The notes beneath the pieces were generated by a model. That model was not told the DNA's origin. It saw only the letters and a program-made list of their open reading frames with translations, and made no database searches. From a virus: 64,000 bases of DNA. The position numbers and the translations under genes are program-made. Below, piece after piece: positions 1-42,635 of the stretch; the stretch's first letter is position 1; each line of letters starts with the position of its first letter. The stretch spans positions 1 to 64,000 of the IMG/VR virus record IMGVR_UViG_3300035703_000047; one strand, 5' to 3'.

Positions 1-914
1 GCGGATCCACCTCGTATGCCATTTTGCGTGCAACATCTGACAGTTGCTTCAAACTTCTTGAGAAATGGTACAACACCCGTGTGTTGAACTTCTCCACCTC
101 TGATTTTGCTGTTGATGCCACGGATTCGACCAGCGTTGATGCCGATTCCCGCCCTCTGTGCAACGTATCTGCCAATAGCCATATCGCTACTAAAGATACT
201 ATCGAGGGTGTCATCAACGTCAACAAGCACACAGCTAGCAAATTGTCTAAGCGGAGTCCGCACTCCCGCCATGATTGGTGTTGGGATGTTGATTCTGTGT
301 TTGGAGATTGCATTATAGTACCTACGAACGTAGTCCAGTCTAGTCTCTTTTGGATATTCTGCAAAAATTGTTGCAGAAATCAACATGTACATATATTGTG
401 GTGTTTCATACAACTCACCACTACTTCTATCTTGCACGAGGTACTTATCAACGACTTGACGTAATCCCGCATAAGTGAATAAGAAGTCACGATCATGATC
501 GATCCAACTATTAATTTTGTCCCATTCTTCTTGAGAGTATCTGGAAGGAAGTTTTTTATCATATATTCCCTTTGAAGATCCCCCGACAAGGTGATTCAAA
601 ATATGAGGAAATCCTTGATTCCAAGAAGGACCAAAAACTTGTTTGTAGAGTCCAAACAAAAGAAGTCTTGCGGCAACAAATTGATAATTAGGAGATTCAA
701 GATCAATAAGATCAGAAGCAGAACGAATCAAAATCTCCTGAATTTCTGCTGTTGTAATTCCATCGTAAAATTGAATACCCGACTGCATTTCAACTTGAGA
801 TGCAGAAACTCCCGCAAGACCTTCAGTGGCACTCTCAACCATTTTATGAATTTTATCTAGGTTAAGATTTTCGGTATTTCCGTTTCTCTTTACAACTTTA
901 GTCCCGTTACTCAT
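1..914 (-). CDS. nrdA: Ribonucleotide reductase class Ia alpha subunit, N-terminal part (runs off the window)
   Basis: Manual translation from ATG at 914: MSNGTKVVKRNGNTENLNLDKIHKMV (ATP cone)...FTYAGLRQVVDKYLVQDRSSGELYETPQ; ATGA overlap with the primase stop. Confidence 0.95.
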   Translation of the reverse strand, partial: MSNGTKVVKRNGNTENLNLDKIHKMVESATEGLAGVSASQVEMQSGIQFYDGITTAEIQEILIRSASDLIDLESPNYQFVAARLLLFGLYKQVFGPSWNQGFPHILNHLVGGSSKGIYDKKLPSRYSQEEWDKINSWIDHDRDFLFTYAGLRQVVDKYLVQDRSSGELYETPQYMYMLISATIFAEYPKETRLDYVRRYYNAISKHRINIPTPIMAGVRTPLRQFASCVLVDVDDTLDSIFSSDMAIGRYVAQRAGIGINAGRIRGINSKIRGGEVQHTGVVPFLKKFEATVRCCTQNGIRGGS

Positions 915-1915
915 GTTTTCTTCCAACTAGTAAGTTTTGTTTTAGCTTGTAATCCACTATAGACATTTGATTCTATCACAGATTGAACATTAAGTCCAGA
1001 TAAAATCATATCATTGATGTCTTTTTGTTGTACTGTATCAGGCCAAATAACGATTGGAAATTTCCAATCTATCGCCTTTTCCATTCTATCAACAATTTGT
1101 TTATTACGTTTTTCGTTATCATAAATCATTACAAATTTTGTTTCAGAGTTTGAGACGAAAAACATTTTGTCTATATCTGCACCGACCATTGCAATAGAAT
1201 TGTCAATAAACATACTATCAAAAGGGCCTTCTACAATATAAACTGTTTTATTCCAGTCAACTTTATCCAAACCGTAGATCTTGGGGTGGTGGTCATCCAA
1301 AATAATTGTAATATACTTAAGTTTTGATTTTGGATTGAGCGATCTCCCCTGAAACCCAAATATTTCTCCGTTATTCTTTAAGGGAATGATGATCCTTGGT
1401 TCATCATTATCTAGATTTTCAAATGTATATTTTTGAATATTGGTCCATTTTTTGAACCTTTCGGCGAAATAAAGTTCGCCCAGATATTTACTCGGGATTC
1501 TTCGATTGTCTAAAAATTTTCTGGCTGGGTGTGTTGTATTTAGTTCTGAAATTTTTGGTAGGTCAAAATCTTTTTTTGAGAAATCTGGCTTTTCAAACTT
1601 AAATTGAACTGGTTCTGGTGTATTGGATCCCCGCCCCGTGGCACCCGTTTTATACCTCTCAAAGACGTACTGATCGTGTAGAGCAGGGTCAGTATCCTTA
1701 AGAAAGTTTGTGAAGGTTCTAGAGACGCCACAATTATGACATTTGAAATTATGGTCATTCTTCAACCGGTAAAGATATCCCCTAGCCTTATTTTTATGTC
1801 TTTCGGAATCCCCACAATATGGGCAACGAAAATTATATAAACCTTCTTTCTTTTTTGCAAACTTTTGAAGTCTTACTGAAACTAGTCCAATATACTTAGA
1901 ATCAATGAGGCTCAT
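911..1915 (-). CDS. gp61: DNA primase (T4 gp61-like)
   Basis: Zn finger CPYCGDS...CHNC, TOPRIM motif VEGPFDS and YDNE. Confidence 0.95.
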   Translation of the reverse strand: MSLIDSKYIGLVSVRLQKFAKKKEGLYNFRCPYCGDSERHKNKARGYLYRLKNDHNFKCHNCGVSRTFTNFLKDTDPALHDQYVFERYKTGATGRGSNTPEPVQFKFEKPDFSKKDFDLPKISELNTTHPARKFLDNRRIPSKYLGELYFAERFKKWTNIQKYTFENLDNDEPRIIIPLKNNGEIFGFQGRSLNPKSKLKYITIILDDHHPKIYGLDKVDWNKTVYIVEGPFDSMFIDNSIAMVGADIDKMFFVSNSETKFVMIYDNEKRNKQIVDRMEKAIDWKFPIVIWPDTVQQKDINDMILSGLNVQSVIESNVYSGLQAKTKLTSWKKT

Positions 1916-2340
1916 TTAGAAAGTGTTGTATTAGCTCCACCTACTATACCACCACCATTTCCTGTTGTCAACAGGTTTCCAAAAAATCCTGCAGAACTAA
2001 TAATAACTGCAGCAGTTGTAGCAATGCCAACAGTCATCCACCTAAAAGTCGCAAGATCATTAACTCTTGTCTCCACGGTCTCAATTCTTTTGATAACAGC
2101 TTGATGTTCTTTACTATTAGAACTTTTCATTTCTTCCATCATTTTAAGAAGTAGTTCATCAGCACGTTCAGACTGATCTAACTTTTCTTCATGTCTAGCA
2201 AGAACTTGAGCGATCTGGTTATTTCCTTCTGAAATTTTATCTACAGCTCTTTCAAGTTTGTCAAGCATCTCTTTGGAGAGATCTTCATAAATTCCAAGTT
2301 TTGATTCTAAAACTGCTAATTTTTGAAGACCGAAGGCCAT
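1912..2340 (-). CDS. Coiled-coil protein with a C-terminal transmembrane helix
   Basis: Heptad-rich N-terminus, hydrophobic WMTVGIATTAAVIISSAGFF; overlaps primase start. Confidence 0.75.
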   Translation of the reverse strand: MAFGLQKLAVLESKLGIYEDLSKEMLDKLERAVDKISEGNNQIAQVLARHEEKLDQSERADELLLKMMEEMKSSNSKEHQAVIKRIETVETRVNDLATFRWMTVGIATTAAVIISSAGFFGNLLTTGNGGGIVGGANTTLSK

Positions 2341-2341
2341 T

Positions 2342-2575
2342 TTACTTGTCCTTTTTCTTTTTCTTTTTATGCTTTCTTAGGAATTTACTATATTCTTTTG
2401 GTAGTCTTTTCATTAATCTAGATCTTCCATCCGGAGTTCCAATGATAGGATCAAATCCAGCAACAGGACCCTTTGGATCTGCAGAACCAGTAAATCCGCC
2501 GGTGCCTACAACCATACCTTCTTCCATTAAGTTACGAATAATATGAATTGCATTTTGAAGAATATGATCTTTCAT
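2342..2575 (-). CDS. Small hypothetical protein with a basic tail
   Basis: Tightly packed ORF; GFTGSADPKGPVAGFDP resembles the gp23 N-terminal segment. Confidence 0.7.
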   Translation of the reverse strand: MKDHILQNAIHIIRNLMEEGMVVGTGGFTGSADPKGPVAGFDPIIGTPDGRSRLMKRLPKEYSKFLRKHKKKKKKDK

Positions 2576-2943
2576 AGTTTACTTAAATCTTGCAAACAAT
2601 TATTATCCATAGGTATATCATGTAGAGCAGACCTTGGATATTCCGGAAGTCTACCCAAATAAACAACGAATGTTTTAACTACTGGCCACAACTCACGATC
2701 AATTTTAAAAAAAAGCAATGGTGTTGCGGCATCTCCAAATACATTATAAAGAATAATAAAATGATTTATGAGTAAATGAGATTTTAAAATTCCAGTACTT
2801 TGATACCTTTTTAAAAGTCTTTTTATCCACTTAAATCTTTTAAGATCCTCATAAAAATCCTCTTGCGTTACAGCATGAGGATTTTCGTAATGTTTGATTG
2901 CAAACATTATATAATTGTCTTCGTTCAATTCATCAAATCTCAT
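2572..2943 (-). CDS. Conserved T4-like hypothetical protein
   Basis: MRFDELNEDNYIMFAIKHYENP...LLINHFIILYNVFG pattern typical of T4-like phages. Confidence 0.8.
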   Translation of the reverse strand: MRFDELNEDNYIMFAIKHYENPHAVTQEDFYEDLKRFKWIKRLLKRYQSTGILKSHLLINHFIILYNVFGDAATPLLFFKIDRELWPVVKTFVVYLGRLPEYPRSALHDIPMDNNCLQDLSKL

Positions 2944-2955
2944 ACCGTATTAAAG

Positions 2956-3519
2956 TCAACCAGTGGTAACGCCAACAGTAGTTGTAATTCCACTACCACC
3001 AGCACCCGTTACTTCAGTAGAAACAAAGATCTTATCAGAAGCAACAGATGTTGAAGTATCAGTAATAATGCCAGCGATTGTTTGTCCAGGAATTACAAGA
3101 GTTTGTGCAGCAGCAGGAGTTGTGAATGCAAATCCAACTGTCTTATTTGCAGTAGTTGTAGTTGCATAAGCAACTAAAGTACCAGCAATAGAAGCGGTTA
3201 CATTAAGAGTAGCAGCAAGATTCTTAACATCTACTTTTTCATTATACTGAACATAAACTGTTCCAGTAGAAGATGTTGAATAACCAGTTGCACCAAAGTA
3301 TACACGAACGATAGTCGCATTACCAAGTCCAGTATCTGTAGTTGCGTATCCTGACAATCCACCAATCGAAACGAGAACCTCTTCGTTACCATCTGCATGT
3401 CTGATTACCCAACCTCTTTCATCAGCAAAACACTCATTAAGATCGTTAGCTGGTTTATCACCCTCGCGTAACCACTTAGGTCTTGATTCGTCTGAAGTAG
3501 AATTTCCCCAAAGAGGCAT
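2956..3519 (-). CDS. Probable virion structural protein
   Basis: MPLWG N-terminus, Thr/Gly-rich beta-type composition, late promoter upstream. Confidence 0.7.
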   Translation of the reverse strand: MPLWGNSTSDESRPKWLREGDKPANDLNECFADERGWVIRHADGNEEVLVSIGGLSGYATTDTGLGNATIVRVYFGATGYSTSSTGTVYVQYNEKVDVKNLAATLNVTASIAGTLVAYATTTTANKTVGFAFTTPAAAQTLVIPGQTIAGIITDTSTSVASDKIFVSTEVTGAGGSGITTTVGVTTG

Positions 3520-3553
3520 TGGTTTTCTCCAAATTATGTTCTTATCTAAATCT

Positions 3554-3590
3554 TATTTATAAAAAAATAGACCCTAGTTTTTAGGGCCTT
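3554..3590 (-). terminator. Intrinsic terminator followed directly by late promoter TAAATA (3554-3559)
   Basis: Minus strand AGGCCCTA-AAAAC-TAGGGTCT-ATTTTTTT then ATAAATA. Confidence 0.7.
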
Positions 3591-3738
3591 TGTTCAAAAC
3601 GGTCCTCAAAAACAAAGATAAAAAGTCAAGAATACCGTTCGCTTCTGTCCTTTTAGTTTTTGACAACCACTCCGATAGAGAGAGGAGTAATCCTAGAAGA
3701 ATGGTTACTCCCCAGTTGGTTACGAAACAAGTAATCAT
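3574..3738 (-). CDS. 54-aa membrane protein (below ORF-track cutoff), possibly holin-like
   Basis: MITCFVTNWGVTILLGLLLSLSEWLSKTKRTEANGILDFLSLFL...; ATGA overlap with the upstream ORF. Confidence 0.65.
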   Translation of the reverse strand: MITCFVTNWGVTILLGLLLSLSEWLSKTKRTEANGILDFLSLFLRTVLNKGPKN

Positions 3739-3917
3739 GCTTTAGGCTCTTCTGGTTTAAAGAGAAGTACTTTAACAGTTTCAAGAATTTGATCATCAAT
3801 ACTATTATCTGTGGACTTCACATACTTCTCAAGAAGAGAAATAACGAGATTCTTGACTGCTGGATGTGTAGCAATCTGAAGAAGAATTGGTTTTACTACA
3901 ACGACAACTGCTCCCAT
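3735..3917 (-). CDS. Small hypothetical protein
   Basis: GAGG SD, late promoter at 3943-3948, LLEKYVKSTDNSIDD motif. Confidence 0.7.
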   Translation of the reverse strand: MGAVVVVVKPILLQIATHPAVKNLVISLLEKYVKSTDNSIDDQILETVKVLLFKPEEPKA

Positions 3918-3945
3918 GATAACCTCTGTGTATAGGCAGCCGTAT

Positions 3946-4359
3946 TTATGATTTCCTTCTACTTAAAAGTTCATTAAAATCTTTTTTCTTCGTTCCGCCA
4001 TCATATTCCCAAGCATATCCTTCAGTAACCATTTGGTTATTAATGGATACTTCTTCGCCATTGATAAACAGATGACCGATGATACGACCATATTTTTCGG
4101 TACTATCTGGCAACTCCGTCTTGATTAAAATATCTTTAGCAAATTCTAATCTGTGCTTGAGCCAATCTTTAACTTCAATACCAAGTTTTTTTTCATAAGC
4201 ATCAGTTGTTCTGCTCTCTGGGGTATCGATACCAGCAAGACGAATTCGCTTAGTAAGGGAGATATCAAAACCCAAATCAATGTCAGCGTCAATAGTGTCG
4301 CCATCTACTACCTTGTGTACTGAACGTATTCTATAGACGTAAGGATCTTTGTCAGCCAT
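3946..4359 (-). CDS. Thermonuclease (SNase-like) family nuclease
   Basis: VVDGDT, RIRLAGIDTPE, KYGRIIG, MVTEGYA motifs. Confidence 0.9.
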   Translation of the reverse strand: MADKDPYVYRIRSVHKVVDGDTIDADIDLGFDISLTKRIRLAGIDTPESRTTDAYEKKLGIEVKDWLKHRLEFAKDILIKTELPDSTEKYGRIIGHLFINGEEVSINNQMVTEGYAWEYDGGTKKKDFNELLSRRKS

Positions 4360-6190: not shown

Positions 6191-9100
6191 TTAACAATTC
6201 CAGGCTCTCAAACTTTTGTTAATTCTGGAATCAGGATCGTTAGCAGTTTTAGCAGAAGTAAGTTTCTCCTTCATGCCTTTCATTCTTGAACAAAATGATG
6301 CACGACGAGGATTACCAACTTTCTTTGAAGGTGCCTTCAAATCAGAACCAGGATTCTCGCGTTCGTAGGACTTACGGCCTTTTTCGTTTAATCCGCCTGA
6401 CTCAGACTTTCCCTCTTTCTTTGTCCATGCAGCAGACTCACCAAGTTTGGAAGCACGTCGTTTTGCCTTGTTTCCAGAACCTCTATCTCTGTTTTTACCC
6501 ACAACACTTGCCCAGTAATCTTTATTTTTTCTATTTGCTTCACCACCAATACTGCGTTCATCTTCTGGAGCACTTATTCCACCACGCTTTCTCACTGGTG
6601 GTTCTTCCTTTTGACGCCTTCTTTGTTTTTTGAAGTCATCCATGGTCATACCCTCTTCAATTTCAGTTTCTTCTTTAGAAACTACCATCATCATAGGATT
6701 TCTAGATCCCATTAATCTTGCCTTGGTTTTTACAAGATTAACTTTAGTTGGAAGATCTCTCATATCTTTTTTAGGGGTTTCTTCCTTCTCTTTTTCATCG
6801 CATCCACAACCCTCACTCATATTCGGATTAATCTCAATTTTATTTTTCTTTTTTGTCACATCAATAATTTTTTGTTGTGGTTCTTTGATTGATTGATCGT
6901 CAACTTCAAAAATAAATTCTTCTCTCCAATTGGAATACTCTTCCATTCTTGACTTAATAAGTGAAGATTTCAATGCTGGATTTCTTCTAGCTCTTTGACC
7001 TAGACTCATTCCAGTTTCTCTTTTGGGTTTACCAGTTTCACCTGCAGCAGGAAGTCTTTTTGTAGATGGAACTAGTTTCTTTCTCTCTGGACTTACAGGT
7101 AACTTTTTCCTTTCTGGAGTACCAGATAATTTTTTAGGAGTTGTGTCGGTCTTTTTTTCATCACTTTTTATAGAAACTCTCTCTGCAGATGTAGTTTCTG
7201 GTTTAGATTCAGATTTTACTGGTTCCTTCTTTTCGGATTTAGGAGGTTCAGATCCCTTCTCACCTTTTTTTTCTGTTGCTTTTTTATAAGCATACTTACC
7301 AAGAGCAACTCCAGTTTTAGCAACTGCTGAAACCAAATTTCCAACATTACTTACACCTGCAGATACTGCTTCAGTATCTTTTTTATCCCCAGCAACTTTT
7401 ATAGGTTTACTCCAAGCAGACTTAATATCCCCTTTCAGTTCAGATCTTCTTTTTTTCCTAGACTGTTCCCTTTCTTTTATCTGACTAATTTTTTCCTTTT
7501 CCTTTCTCTCCAATTCTTTTTGTCTTTCTTTAGATTTACTTTGTTTTGCCTTTTCTTCCTCTTTTGATTTTCTGGTTTCCTCCTTTTTTCTTTCCTGTTC
7601 GGATTTCTTTTGTTCCCTCTCTTTTTTACTCTTCTCAGTATAACTGAGTCTTTCGCGTTGTCTTTCAGTTCTAGCAGCTTCTTTTTCCTTTTCAGCCTCT
7701 CTTGCAATTCTTGCAGCCTTTACTCTACCAGCAGCAGAAGTTCTTGCAGCTCTTTCAGTTGCAGTGTTTCTGGTCTTTACTTCGTCTTTTGCTTTTTCTT
7801 TTTTTGTCTTCTCTTTATCTTCCTTTGGAGTTTCTTTTTCCTTGACTTCATCTCTCATCATCTTATTAGCTTTAGTAGCTACTTTAGCTTGATGAAGTCT
7901 ATCTTGCTGCTTTTTTGAGCGTTCTTCTCTCCTGGCTTTTGCAGCCATAAGTTGTGCATCAGAAACTTCTAGAAGAATTCTATCTACTAAACACAACTCC
8001 TCTTTAGTATCTTCTTTCTTTTCAGGAAGTCCTTCATGTTTTGTCTTTGCAAAATCTCTTGCAGCTTTCTTAGACATGCCAGATGCAGCCTTTGCAACTT
8101 CGGGAGATGCGGGAGTCCCACCTTTCTTCGCGGCATAAACCATACCCATAAATCTTTGTTGTGCTCTACTTAGAGACTTTTCTTCAAGATATCCTTCACC
8201 CATTGCTTTTTGCTTGCGGAGTTTCTTGGGATTCTTCGTCTTATCTGCTGAGTAGTTACTATCATCACCCTCAGGGTCCATAGAACTGCGATGTCTTGTT
8301 CTTCTTTCTTCATCATCCAGTTTTGCACGGTTGGACTTTGCCTCATCTGGAGAATATGTTCTACCACTGTTGTACCATTCTTTACCTACATGACCTCTCT
8401 TCTTAGCATCGGCAGAGGCTTCTCTACGCTTGAGTTTTCTGCGGTTTGCTTTGAAGTCCTTCATGGACATTCCTTCATCAAGATCGTTTTCCTCTTTCTG
8501 AACACGAAACTTTCCACCAGTTTCCTTATGAGTATCAGAAAGTTCATCAGCTCTATCATGAGCATACTTTCTACTCTTTACTGGTTTGCCAATTTTCTTT
8601 TCTTTCTTACCATCGTGAGAACCATATACCTGATATGGCATTTCCTCAATGTATTCCTCTTTAGTTACAAGTCCAATCGGATTTTTATTTTTCTTTGTAA
8701 TTTTATCATGAGCTTTAATAGAAATCTCTTGATAATCTGCATAAGTTTTACCTGCAGATGGACCTTCTCTACCAGGACTTTTTGCAGCCTTACCACCTTT
8801 TTCTTTTCTTTCCTCAGCTCTTTCTCTTGCAGCAACCTTTCTCATCTCACGACGATACTCTTTATCCTCTTCAACCATTTCACCTTCTGGTTCAAAGTGA
8901 GCAACCTGAGTGGTTTTTACACTTGGTTTAGAAGCTCCCTTAAATGCTGGAAATCCACCCGGATATGATTTGAGAACAGGACTATCAAGTTTTTTTCTAG
9001 TCTTATTCAAAACATCATCATCTCCATGGTATCCTTGTCTTTGATCCCCTACTACTCTTCTCGCTCTATCACCAATATCACTCTCGTCAATCTGTTCGAC

Positions 9101-9523
9101 ATCTTCTTTCATTTTTTCTCTTCTAGCCTTTGACTTCGCAAGAATTCTCTCACGAGCAGCTTCCTGTTCAGACTTGGGGATATTAAACATATCTCTATCA
9201 GTCTTCAGTCTTTCCTGAGGGGGAATGACTTTAGCTCTAACTTTTCTACGATTTAAAAGATACTTATCAGACTTATCGTGATCTCCGTCGTTGTCAATAT
9301 CCTTATCTTCCTGACCTACTGGGTCAAGAGCTTCTTCTACTTTCTTTTTCTTGTCAGCAGCAATCGCAGCACCAACAGTAGCTCTTCTCTTCTTCAAATA
9401 GCTATCGGAAGAATCCGAATCACCATCATTATCCACGTCGTCATCTTCTTGACCGACTGGATCTAATTTTTTAGATGCTTTAGCTTCTGCAACAATACGC
9501 GAAAATTCTTCCCAACTAGCCAT
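6191..9523 (-). CDS. 1110-aa modular Lys/Glu-rich late protein, putative protease-processed polyprotein
   Basis: Repeated modules with acidic linkers; C-terminal AWTKKEGK...RINKSLRAWNC module; late promoter at 9550-9555. Confidence 0.8.
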   Translation of the reverse strand: MASWEEFSRIVAEAKASKKLDPVGQEDDDVDNDGDSDSSDSYLKKRRATVGAAIAADKKKKVEEALDPVGQEDKDIDNDGDHDKSDKYLLNRRKVRAKVIPPQERLKTDRDMFNIPKSEQEAARERILAKSKARREKMKEDVEQIDESDIGDRARRVVGDQRQGYHGDDDVLNKTRKKLDSPVLKSYPGGFPAFKGASKPSVKTTQVAHFEPEGEMVEEDKEYRREMRKVAARERAEERKEKGGKAAKSPGREGPSAGKTYADYQEISIKAHDKITKKNKNPIGLVTKEEYIEEMPYQVYGSHDGKKEKKIGKPVKSRKYAHDRADELSDTHKETGGKFRVQKEENDLDEGMSMKDFKANRRKLKRREASADAKKRGHVGKEWYNSGRTYSPDEAKSNRAKLDDEERRTRHRSSMDPEGDDSNYSADKTKNPKKLRKQKAMGEGYLEEKSLSRAQQRFMGMVYAAKKGGTPASPEVAKAASGMSKKAARDFAKTKHEGLPEKKEDTKEELCLVDRILLEVSDAQLMAAKARREERSKKQQDRLHQAKVATKANKMMRDEVKEKETPKEDKEKTKKEKAKDEVKTRNTATERAARTSAAGRVKAARIAREAEKEKEAARTERQRERLSYTEKSKKEREQKKSEQERKKEETRKSKEEEKAKQSKSKERQKELERKEKEKISQIKEREQSRKKRRSELKGDIKSAWSKPIKVAGDKKDTEAVSAGVSNVGNLVSAVAKTGVALGKYAYKKATEKKGEKGSEPPKSEKKEPVKSESKPETTSAERVSIKSDEKKTDTTPKKLSGTPERKKLPVSPERKKLVPSTKRLPAAGETGKPKRETGMSLGQRARRNPALKSSLIKSRMEEYSNWREEFIFEVDDQSIKEPQQKIIDVTKKKNKIEINPNMSEGCGCDEKEKEETPKKDMRDLPTKVNLVKTKARLMGSRNPMMMVVSKEETEIEEGMTMDDFKKQRRRQKEEPPVRKRGGISAPEDERSIGGEANRKNKDYWASVVGKNRDRGSGNKAKRRASKLGESAAWTKKEGKSESGGLNEKGRKSYERENPGSDLKAPSKKVGNPRRASFCSRMKGMKEKLTSAKTANDPDSRINKSLRAWNC
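9260..9470 (-). repeat. Duplicated LDPVGQEDxDxDNDGDxDxSDxYLxxRR module
   Basis: Two copies near the N-terminus of the 1110-aa protein; DxDNDG resembles a Ca-binding loop. Confidence 0.85.
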
Positions 9524-29463: not shown

Positions 29464-29760
29464 TCAATCGAATCGGGAACTCTGCATCTCATCACTACGT
29501 TTTTTGTCCGCACGACGCTTTGCAACCTTCTGTGCTGGAGATGCAGGTGCGCCATATTGACCAGCAGTAGGTGGTTTTTTACCAGGAACTTTTTTACGTT
29601 GTCCAGCAGGAGTTCCCTCCATACCACGAATCATTTTTTTAACATGGGTGTATGCCTTATCAGTCGATCCACCGGACTTGACTTCTTTACCAGTCTTATA
29701 ATCCTTACCAGTTTCTTTTTCGTAGCGATTGAGTTCGCCAATCAGGACTTTCCCAGGCAA
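29464..29760 (-). CDS. Basic module, probably translated as a -1 frameshift extension of the upstream ORF
   Basis: Only a TTG start; lies in the -1 frame of the GGGAAAG site. Confidence 0.65.
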   Translation of the reverse strand: MPGKVLIGELNRYEKETGKDYKTGKEVKSGGSTDKAYTHVKKMIRGMEGTPAGQRKKVPGKKPPTAGQYGAPASPAQKVAKRRADKKRSDEMQSSRFD

Positions 29761-30347
29761 ACATCCTCCATGATTGATTCAAACCAGGACTCACTCATGT
29801 TGAGAATAATTTTATCTGCAGCATCTTCGGTTGACGCAAATCCTTCGTCAAGAAGATAGGATAAAACTAATTCATATGTATTGATACTTTCACCAATCTC
29901 ACCCATTGCCTTTTGCTTACGCAGTTTCTTGGGATTCTTGGTTACTGTGCCAGAACCATGTTTGTGTCCGCCAGAAGTATACTCAACGGCACTATCTCTT
30001 GCATAATCTCTAGTATCTTGATCTAGTTTTCCTCTACCAGATTTACCCGCAAAACCAGAGTATCTAGGTTTAGTGGATTTCTTACCACGATCCCCAGCAT
30101 CAGGTCCATTATCAATTCTACGAGTGTGTTTTTCAATTTCTCTTACTTTCTTGGTCTTTTCACCTTTCTGCGAATACTCACTTGCTGGTTTCTCACGTCT
30201 AGCAATAGCAACTTTTCCCATTGCCGCTCTTGCCTTTGGAGTTTTGCCATAAGAACCTTCTGCCTCAAGAATTTCTTCAACTTCTTCTTGAAAGACATTA
30301 ACTTGTCGATAGGCTTCCATTAGGCTTTGCAGATCTTTAATGTCCAT
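29742..30347 (-). CDS. Modular late protein, putative internal head polyprotein
   Basis: MDIKDLQSLMEAY leader, TKNPKKLRKQKAMGE module, YLLDEGFA module; late promoter at 30370-30375. Confidence 0.8.
   Translation of the reverse strand: MDIKDLQSLMEAYRQVNVFQEEVEEILEAEGSYGKTPKARAAMGKVAIARREKPASEYSQKGEKTKKVREIEKHTRRIDNGPDAGDRGKKSTKPRYSGFAGKSGRGKLDQDTRDYARDSAVEYTSGGHKHGSGTVTKNPKKLRKQKAMGEIGESINTYELVLSYLLDEGFASTEDAADKIILNMSESWFESIMEDVCLGKS
29748..29769 (-). other. Candidate -1 programmed ribosomal frameshift signal
   Basis: GGAGG-10 nt-G GGA AAG, stop two codons later. Confidence 0.55.
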
Positions 30348-30369
30348 GTTTTTACAAATACTTTTTAGT

Positions 30370-30400
30370 TATTTATAAAAAAAGAAGGGTTTTCCCTTCT
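30370..30400 (-). terminator. Terminator after the cobT-like gene, followed by a late promoter
   Basis: AGAAGGG-AAAA-CCCTTCT-TTTTTT then ATAAATA. Confidence 0.8.
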
Positions 30401-41984: not shown

Positions 41985-42635
41985 TTATAGATTTGACAGA
42001 AACTCTTGGAACAGATTTAACTTCTGTTCATCAAGTCTTCTCTGGTCTATAAGTGTATTTATTCTTTTTTGGGTTCTTTCTGCAAGTTGTTCACGAAGGA
42101 TTCCTCCATCCCAAACCCACTCTTTGCCTTCCATAATTCCAGAAACAAAAGCATCTGGAGCGGAAGGATCAGCAACGATATCAGCTGCAGTAGCAAGCAT
42201 GAAATCTTCACCGACAATTTTGTGTCCTTCACTAGTTGTTTGTAGAGAACCTACACCACGAGAAGAAACACCAAGCATTACGCCCTCATCCAAAAGGGAG
42301 GATGCAATCTTACCCATAGGAGTATTAAGAATTTGTGCTTTACCTTTGAAGTTATTACCTTCCTGAACTAGTGAAGTAATCTTATGCGAAACGCGATCAA
42401 GATTTACTGTTGGGCCATCTGGATGGCCAAGTTCTCCAAGAGCACGACCTTTTTGAACAAACTGCTCATTGTAACGATCTACTTCACGGGAAAGAACATT
42501 AATTGGATACATTCTTCCATTGCGATTTTTAATTTCTCCTTGGAGAAATACGCCTTCAATATAGAGTTTTTTATTAACACCTTTTCCTTCGGTGATAATC
42601 TTTACATTCGTTACTTCTTCGGTAATTAGTTTCAT
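41985..42635 (-). CDS. gp21: Prohead protease
   Basis: NRNGRMY, GELGHP, GVSSRG, DIVADPSAPDA. Confidence 0.96.
   Translation of the reverse strand: MKLITEEVTNVKIITEGKGVNKKLYIEGVFLQGEIKNRNGRMYPINVLSREVDRYNEQFVQKGRALGELGHPDGPTVNLDRVSHKITSLVQEGNNFKGKAQILNTPMGKIASSLLDEGVMLGVSSRGVGSLQTTSEGHKIVGEDFMLATAADIVADPSAPDAFVSGIMEGKEWVWDGGILREQLAERTQKRINTLIDQRRLDEQKLNLFQEFLSNL

Follow-up and report, generated by a model that had tools for sequence, protein, structure and literature searches.

A candidate -1 frameshift site between two modules of a putative head-cargo polyprotein in T4-like cyanophages

How would a phage express a protein module that its relatives read in frame, when its own copy lies in the -1 frame across a stop codon? 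The question is raised by two overlapping open reading frames (ORFs), ORF A and ORF B, on the minus strand of a 64,000-nucleotide stretch of viral DNA (IMG/VR record IMGVR_UViG_3300035703_000047, positions 1 to 64,000), referred to here as the window. The window is part of an 88,985-bp IMG/VR contig from a subsurface metagenome (about 46% of a genome), and its phage is a T4-like cyanophage whose nearest isolates are the Synechococcus phages S-SZBM1, S-CREM1, DSL-LC02 and S-CRM01. ORF B encodes what we call module B, and an insert at the junction has placed it out of frame with ORF A. The split is genuine and widespread, and both ORFs are intact. On balance we consider it somewhat probable, judging by the features of the junction, that -1 frameshifting of the lambda type yields a low dose of module B.

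The split allele and its in-frame relatives

More than 100 relatives carry module B at the C-terminus of a longer modular protein, fused in frame. Among the 91 IMG/VR loci that carry it, module B lies in frame behind other modules everywhere except in L050-L053, where it follows a leader resembling the T4 capsid-targeting sequence (CTS), MK[YD]FQEFLSE↓LNRYEKETG (arrows mark presumed cleavage positions), and it was never seen free-standing without a leader in these loci. The closest architectures (L087, L102, L107, L071 and more than 45 database proteins) read ...NMSE[AS]WFE[DN]IME-LNRYEKETG. The corresponding proteins of two isolates are also in a single frame, as ...ESWAQEIIT-ELNRLEREQGK... 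in DSL-LC02 (WJZ48229) and ...EEWENFILD-EMRKVDK... in S-CRM01 (g291). Judged by these alignments, ORF A and ORF B are one gene elsewhere, as an initial annotation of the window had supposed. DNA alignment with the closest architectures, which read IME-LNRY, leaves 32 extra nucleotides (nt) in the window, at 29768-29737, and the insertion of 29-32 nt that the same annotation had kept as an alternative is borne out. Against a rarer in-frame allele, ...ATGGAGGA-GAAAGTCCTG... (IME-EKVLIGE-LNRY), the window has 11 extra nt, at 29763-29753.

Contigs from four public sequencing runs were compared with the window across the junction; among the runs listed as containing the stretch, none was of RNA. 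An independent Logan assembly of the source run is identical there (4367-nt contig, depth 21.6, 0 gaps), and a freshwater run from another study (X3) gave an 822-nt contig over the junction with 24 mismatches, 23 of them far upstream of it, and 0 gaps; the extra bases, which the initial annotation had marked for checking, are supported by both. In X2 and X5, both marine runs from a third study, the sequence is the same except that 8 nt are missing at 29752, which leaves a 24-nt in-frame linker. Variants without the whole 32 nt are present in the same samples, and in a co-occurring relative the joint runs from 29734 to 29767 and skips 32 nt. A sequencing or assembly error that hides a genome truly in frame would be conceivable for a metagenome-assembled contig, in which the loss of one A from GGGAAAA would mimic the heptamer described below. 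However, the source-run assembly shows no indel variant, the contig from the other study is equally long over the site, the gap to the in-frame alleles is 8 or 11 nt and not a homopolymer slip, and dozens of contigs from other sources share the split. The probability of an error is thus next to nil, and the source-run assembly and the other-study contig rule out the assembly error that the initial annotation had listed as an alternative.

The split allele was found in at least 74 contig records (JGI, ENA and Logan), as against about 7 for the in-frame EKVLIGE form. Its 16 ORF-A sequences share 38-100% pairwise identity, have differing N-terminal modules and end in ...DVCLGK[S/F] or, in one case, ...EVSLGK, with the stop at most one codon past LGK in 16/16. 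ORF B is represented by 20 distinct full-length sequences (identity 59-99%), all starting with (M/L)PGKV and all with a normal C-terminus, in a protein search that truncated ORF-B copies of fewer than 53 residues would have escaped. Compared with in-frame relatives, the ratio of nonsynonymous to synonymous substitution rates (dN/dS) of ORF B is 0.125-0.15 at dS 0.6-1.1. ORF B is under purifying selection, and its simple decay is unlikely.

Six ORF-A/ORF-B pairs from equal-sized contigs (e.g. of 93,143 and 10,474 nt) fix the DNA of the junction as TGC CTG GGA AAG T[C/T]C TGA. Among these pairs the junction varies at one base only, which exchanges Ser for Phe in frame 0 and leaves Val unchanged (GTC/GTT) in the -1 frame. 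The heptamer G_GGA_AAG is invariant in the window and in six further contigs, its sequence in these other carriers being deduced from the two reading frames of the paired proteins and not from DNA. Another carrier type is represented by P0149, PGKVVLGERNRY. Pattern scans of IMG/VR for the cassette gave no other carrier, the 19 matches of one scan being unrelated, and a single metagenome scan yielded the EKVLIGE allele, which is in frame (L149, L151), three chance matches and nothing else.

The junction and the frameshift it would allow

At the junction the minus strand reads ATC ATG GAG GAT GTT TGC CTG GGA AAG TCC TGA, and the following features can be placed on it, each with its basis in brackets:

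29742..30347 (-): ORF A, 201 amino acids, the 0-frame product (ORF list; homologues)
29737..29768 (-): insert of 32 nt that most relatives lack, their reading being ATG-GAA-CTC, IME-LNRY (DNA alignment; fold)
29753..29763 (-): 11 nt (TGTTTGCCTGG) present in the window and absent from the closest in-frame allele (L149, L151; P0065, P0254, P0259)
29765..29769 (-): internal Shine-Dalgarno (SD)-like GGAGG, followed by the TTG after 4 nt and by the heptamer after 10 nt
29758..29760 (-): TTG, the one codon at which ORF B could be initiated in the -1 frame (JGI records print L here)
29748..29754 (-): slippery heptamer G_GGA_AAG in 0-frame phase (read from the sequence)
29742..29744 (-): 0-frame stop TGA, one codon past the heptamer (read from the sequence)
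29723..29740 (-): weak 6-bp hairpin UGGCGA/UCGCUA, 7 nt 3' of the heptamer (ViennaRNA, minimum free energy and centroid structures)
29464..29751 (-): -1 frame coding after slippage, K-VLIGE and then module B, LNRYEKETG...SSRFD and stop (translation)

ORF A ends in ...NMSESWFESIME-DVCLGKS (IME-DVCLGKS) and its stop. The heptamer matches X_XXY_YYZ in the 0-frame, within the overlap of the two ORFs from 29778 to 29745, and exactly 10 nt (29764-29755) separate it from the GGAGG at 29769-29765. The -1 frame is open from 29778, as (INHGGC)LPGKVLIGELNRYEKETG..., reads ...LPGKVLIGELNRYEKETG...SSRFD and stops at 29464; ORF B has no normal start, the TTG at 29760-29758 being the lone start-type codon before the heptamer. 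In these respects the initial annotation proved accurate: the heptamer, its phase and its 10-nt distance from GGAGG can be read from the sequence, and the -1 continuation GKVLIGE-LNRYEKETG into an ORF with only a TTG start follows from sequence and translation. It had also bracketed the cassette with putative cleavage sites at IME↓ and IGE↓, and both agree with the motif of gp21, the prohead protease of T4, of which the window encodes a homologue. Its downstream stem fared less well, since a weak stem is present, with UGGCGA/UCGCUA as the preferred pairing, but folds no better than shuffled sequence.

GGGAAAG occurs 5 times on the two strands of the 64-kb window, against 8.4 expected. The a priori chance of an in-phase heptamer inside the 11-codon overlap is about 10^-3; a fairer figure for coincidence is 1/64 to 1/16, because AAAG pre-existed in the in-frame allele and only the preceding three bases needed to form a homotriplet. 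From the 11 extra nt come the shift of frame, the TTG and the GGG that opens the heptamer. The 32-nt insert is self-complementary, with an outer stem GUUUGCC/GGCGAAC and an inner stem CUGGGA/UCCUG, and a templated or snap-back origin may apply, although it matches the downstream sequence, taken as reverse complement, in part only. For the 11 nt this match extends to 8/11 positions, with a 3-nt gap, and a quasi-palindromic, templated origin is speculation.

The pathway that we propose starts from the 32-nt insert (11 nt relative to the closest in-frame allele), which lies between WFESIME and LNRYEKETG, puts module B in the -1 frame and also creates G_GGA_AAG 10 nt past GGAGG and one codon ahead of UGA. 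Most ribosomes would stop at this UGA and release the ORF A product alone, while a minority would slip by -1, from GGA-AAG to GGG-AAA, and make A-DVCLGKVLIGE-B. The N-terminal leader would take both products into the prohead, where gp21 may cut at IME↓ and IGE↓ and the 11-residue cassette peptide would be discarded. Because these two cuts would remove the cassette peptide, the mature pieces would equal those of the insert-free relatives, with the dose of B alone reduced. Tandem -1 slippage appears to be the simplest route, since module B is intact, selected and without a leader of its own. We infer slippage, and any efficiency it may have, from the sequence. G_GGA_AAG is highly shift-prone in E. 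coli (PMC5009743), and related cyanophages carry tRNA-Lys(TTT) only (PMC9964418); no tRNA genes were found in the window.

Modules, presumed processing and known counterparts

ORF A opens with the acidic leader MDIKDLQSLME↓A and a spacer, likewise acidic, that ends in ILE↓A; then come a basic module (residues 30-152, isoelectric point (pI) 10.2, ending in KNPKKLRKQKAMGEIGE↓), an acidic helical module (SINTYELVLSYLLDEGF...NMSESWFESIME↓, ending in IME↓) and the tail DVCLGKS. Mature module B would be a basic piece of 89 amino acids, also of pI 10.2. The cleavage motif of gp21 is L/I-x-E (PMC9026906), and all module joints of ORF A and ORF B fit it. The leader of ORF A has L-M-E at residues 9-11 and is without the MK-F--F pattern shared by L050-L053 and three other window ORFs, all on the minus strand, whose leaders are T4-CTS-like: MKSFNQFLSE↓A at 5725-5411, MKNFSNFLIE↓A at 10802-9549 and MKSFKQFLEQ at 19197-19015. 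Three features outside the junction bear on late expression and processing:

30377..30399 (-): terminator-like hairpin GAAGGG-AAAA-CCCTTC with a T-run, directly past the stop of a 750-residue VWA/CobT-like gene (read from the sequence)
30349..30377 (-): late promoter box TATAAATA (30377-30370) and a 21-nt leader that reaches to 1 nt from the start codon of ORF A
42132..42587 (-): gp21-type prohead protease (Peptidase_S77, PF03420; Pfam E = 1.7e-39, above cut-off)

The neighbours of ORF A and ORF B are the VWA/CobT-like gene and an unknown late gene. The box TATAAATA stands 23 nt ahead of the ATG of ORF A and is not enriched in the window (6 copies found, 6 expected). The 29-nt block at 30349-30377 recurs exactly upstream of family genes (L109:1473-1501, L109:2089-2117, and L135 and L136:417-445), and k-mer depth at 30352-30385 is very high, 230-4200 in all four metagenomes and well over the flanks. 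The block looks like a shared late promoter and 5' untranslated region cassette that moves with family genes, and its sequence fits late transcription of ORF A and ORF B.

By its sequence, the product of ORF A and ORF B fits a head-cargo polyprotein like the internal proteins of T4; that it would be packaged in the virion and cleaved by gp21 we infer from leader, joints and protease. Pfam matched no family to ORF A or ORF B. In an AlphaFold2 model of the in-frame relative P0065 (26 homologues), the mean predicted local distance difference test (pLDDT) score was 52.9 and only the helical module reached about 75, and a model of such low confidence would fit a disordered basic cargo. A tail assembly chaperone was considered for ORF B and rejected: the match to PHROG 2624 covers 42 residues at E = 0.002 in a K-rich stretch and is probably compositional, and the neighbours do not place ORF B between tail tube and tape-measure genes.

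Breakpoints in this family lie at L/I/M-x-E joints, and it seems that modules are shuffled at protease sites. The metagenomes hold many recombinants that join module B directly to other modules (window 29736-29899), e.g. ...KAMGE-DFVT-ELNRY as in L007. The ORF A homologue of S-SZBM1, gene 194 (L001:2440-4563, 707 residues), matches DUF3008 at its N-terminus, and its C-terminal module resembles the S-adenosylmethionine (SAM) lyase family PF23780 (E = 6.8e-8); cargo modules of the family may include anti-restriction enzymes. Directly upstream of this polyprotein gene lies gene 195 (L001:2175-2438), an 87-residue hypothetical protein that ranks third by exponentially modified protein abundance index in the virion proteome (PMC9146016). 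In the window itself, a second KNPKKLRKQKAMGE-coding motif lies at 8196-8239 (-), with 91% identity over 44 nt, inside a large late polyprotein gene at about 6191-9523, and the window therefore holds at least two family members.

The slippery heptamer of lambda G-T is G_GGA_AAG. The present site has the same heptamer in the same phase, lies at the very end of the upstream ORF and, as in lambda, has no strong downstream structure. In lambda, frameshifting by -1 is infrequent and results in a ratio of about 30:1 for the two products, and here too low slippage would add a C-terminal domain and fix the ratio of short to long product of a virion-assembly gene (PMC5009743). Unlike lambda G-T, the gene would encode head-internal cargo and not a tail chaperone, in-frame alleles co-circulate with the split one, protease sites flank the cassette peptide, which would be excised, and the phage is a T4-like cyanobacterial myovirus. 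With dnaX of E. coli (A_AAA_AAG) the junction shares an SD-like sequence about 10 nt 5' of a heptamer ending in A_AAG, and a stop close to the site. The 10-nt spacing rule for dnaX reportedly comes from Larsen et al. 1994. Whereas dnaX needs a strong 3' stem-loop and shifts at about 50% (PMC5009743), the 3' hairpin here is weak and not significant, and the shifted product is the longer one.

With IPI, IPII, IPIII and Alt of T4, the polyprotein would have in common late expression, small basic mature pieces and leaders ending in L/I-x-E (PMC9026906), and a gp21 homologue and CTS-like leaders, the latter on other window genes and on free-standing module B, extend the likeness. It differs from them in that the ORF A leader MDIKDLQSLME↓A is only loosely CTS-like and that it is a multi-module polyprotein shuffled between phages. 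We know of no recoding in T4 internal-protein genes. A further parallel is found in the 'savior' indels of herpesvirus thymidine kinase G-run mutants, in which the frame is lost through an indel at a run prone to shifting and some full-length product is still made by low slippage (PMC5009743). In contrast to these, the short product here has a normal architecture of the family, and the allele is the majority of its lineage and not a rare escape mutant.

Alternatives to frameshifting and significance

A number of observations weigh against frameshifting or against the cargo assignment, and some of them can be turned into alternatives. GGAGG doubles as M-E-D codons and was already in the in-frame allele before the insert, and the downstream hairpin at 29740-29723 is weak, with folding z = +0.38 and z = -0.55 for the region against shuffles (ViennaRNA). 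Slippage on A_AAG is poor where tRNA-Lys(CUU) exists (PMC5009743), and in a host with this tRNA its efficiency would be low. With regard to the cargo, gene 194 of S-SZBM1 is absent among the 30 virion proteins detected in that phage (PMC9146016, Table 1), a weak comparison given that gene 194 is distant and that K/R-rich proteins give poor tryptic coverage. No start-type codon of the -1 ORF precedes the TTG at 29760, which has a 5-mer SD just upstream, gene callers of three sources start ORF B there, and S-SZBM1_195, an abundant virion protein, is annotated with a TTG start (PMC9146016, Table 1). It can thus be hypothesized that there are two genes, ORF B being initiated at this TTG with GGAGG as its ribosome-binding site, possibly coupled to ORF A, to give MPGKVLIGE-LNRY..., whose 9-residue N-terminus would be cut off at IGE↓. 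Such a model explains an intact ORF B under purifying selection equally well. We nevertheless regard it as unlikely. The SD lies only 4 nt from the TTG, and among the window ORFs 56/60 start with ATG and 4/60 have a 5-mer SD. In five JGI records, which print L, the start-type codon is still TTG or CTG, although GTT to GTA, silent in ORF A, would make it ATG. T4 internal proteins are targeted through aromatic residues at positions 4 and 7 (PMC9026906); the other leaders of this phage retain them, as does the one in front of free-standing module B, but MPGKVLIGE has neither. Elsewhere module B is always fused or behind a proper leader. Finally, P0175 (...ILEEVSLGK) keeps LGK, and to judge by its protein no start-type codon is possible there.

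A block of about 150 nt around the cassette is nearly identical in all carriers, which may reflect a recent insertion spread by recombination and not long selection. This agrees with a tolerated truncation, in which carriers would make A only and ORF B would be silent, kept intact by the recency of the insertion and by recombination with in-frame alleles. Proteins with ORF A only that end naturally right after the helical module exist (L109, L113), therefore loss of module B is tolerable in some phages; and in some lineages the reading frame has been regained by one of two distinct deletions (8 and 11 nt), so that the split could be a defect. However, the ORF-B sequences, down to 59% identity, are all without nonsense or frameshift mutations, a dN/dS of 0.13-0.15 speaks against a silent ORF B, and the split allele outnumbers the linker-bearing in-frame alleles by about 10:1 (JGI, ENA and Logan), which makes a silent ORF B improbable. 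A more complex pathway could be envisioned in the bypass of T4 gene 60, another short, hairpin-forming, non-triplet insert in a gene of a T4-like phage whose removal restores the ancestral protein. Here the peptidyl-tRNA-Glu would leave GAG at 29768-29766 and land on GAA at 29736-29734 to give ...IME-LNRY; the insert does form a hairpin, the hop would restore the ancestral protein, and GAG and GAA are both read by tRNA-Glu(UUC). In contrast to gene 60, take-off and landing codons differ and the codon after take-off is GAT and not a stop (PMC5009743), a nascent-peptide signal is not evident, and the perfect tandem-slippage heptamer is a much simpler route, so that bypassing is highly improbable. 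Transcriptional slippage was dismissed, no A or T run of at least 9 being present, and an 11-nt hop from CTG to CTG was ranked low.

If the -1 frameshift reading is taken one step further, the junction could be a newborn frameshift site that persists as a polymorphism in dosage, an idea that we put forward tentatively and hold to be possible but doubtful. A single 11-nt hairpin-making insertion would have turned a constitutive A-B fusion into a slippage-controlled one, and three states, with no linker, an in-frame linker (24 or 21 nt) or a frameshift linker (32 nt), would tune the amount of B per virion. The cassette would be scarless through the cuts on both of its sides, and at the level of the population, recoding would serve T4-like phages as a rheostat for the cargo that they inject.

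Among tailed phages, tail assembly chaperones and a few capsid proteins are the textbook cases of programmed -1 frameshifting. Our literature searches turned up no report of it for cyanophages, and none for head proteins of the internal or cargo kind in T4-like phages. If frameshifting does occur here, the mechanism would be a known one in a new gene class for phage recoding. The alleles without insert, in frame and with the frameshift would form a natural series for studying the origin and selection of frameshift signals. Frameshifting would also provide a way into a large family of cyanophage polyproteins that is unannotated, shuffled and processed by protease, and for which the SAM-lyase-like module in at least one member hints at anti-defence cargo. 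In practical terms, gene callers divide this gene in two in about 70 public contigs, and we recommend that the pieces be annotated as a single recoded gene or at least flagged.

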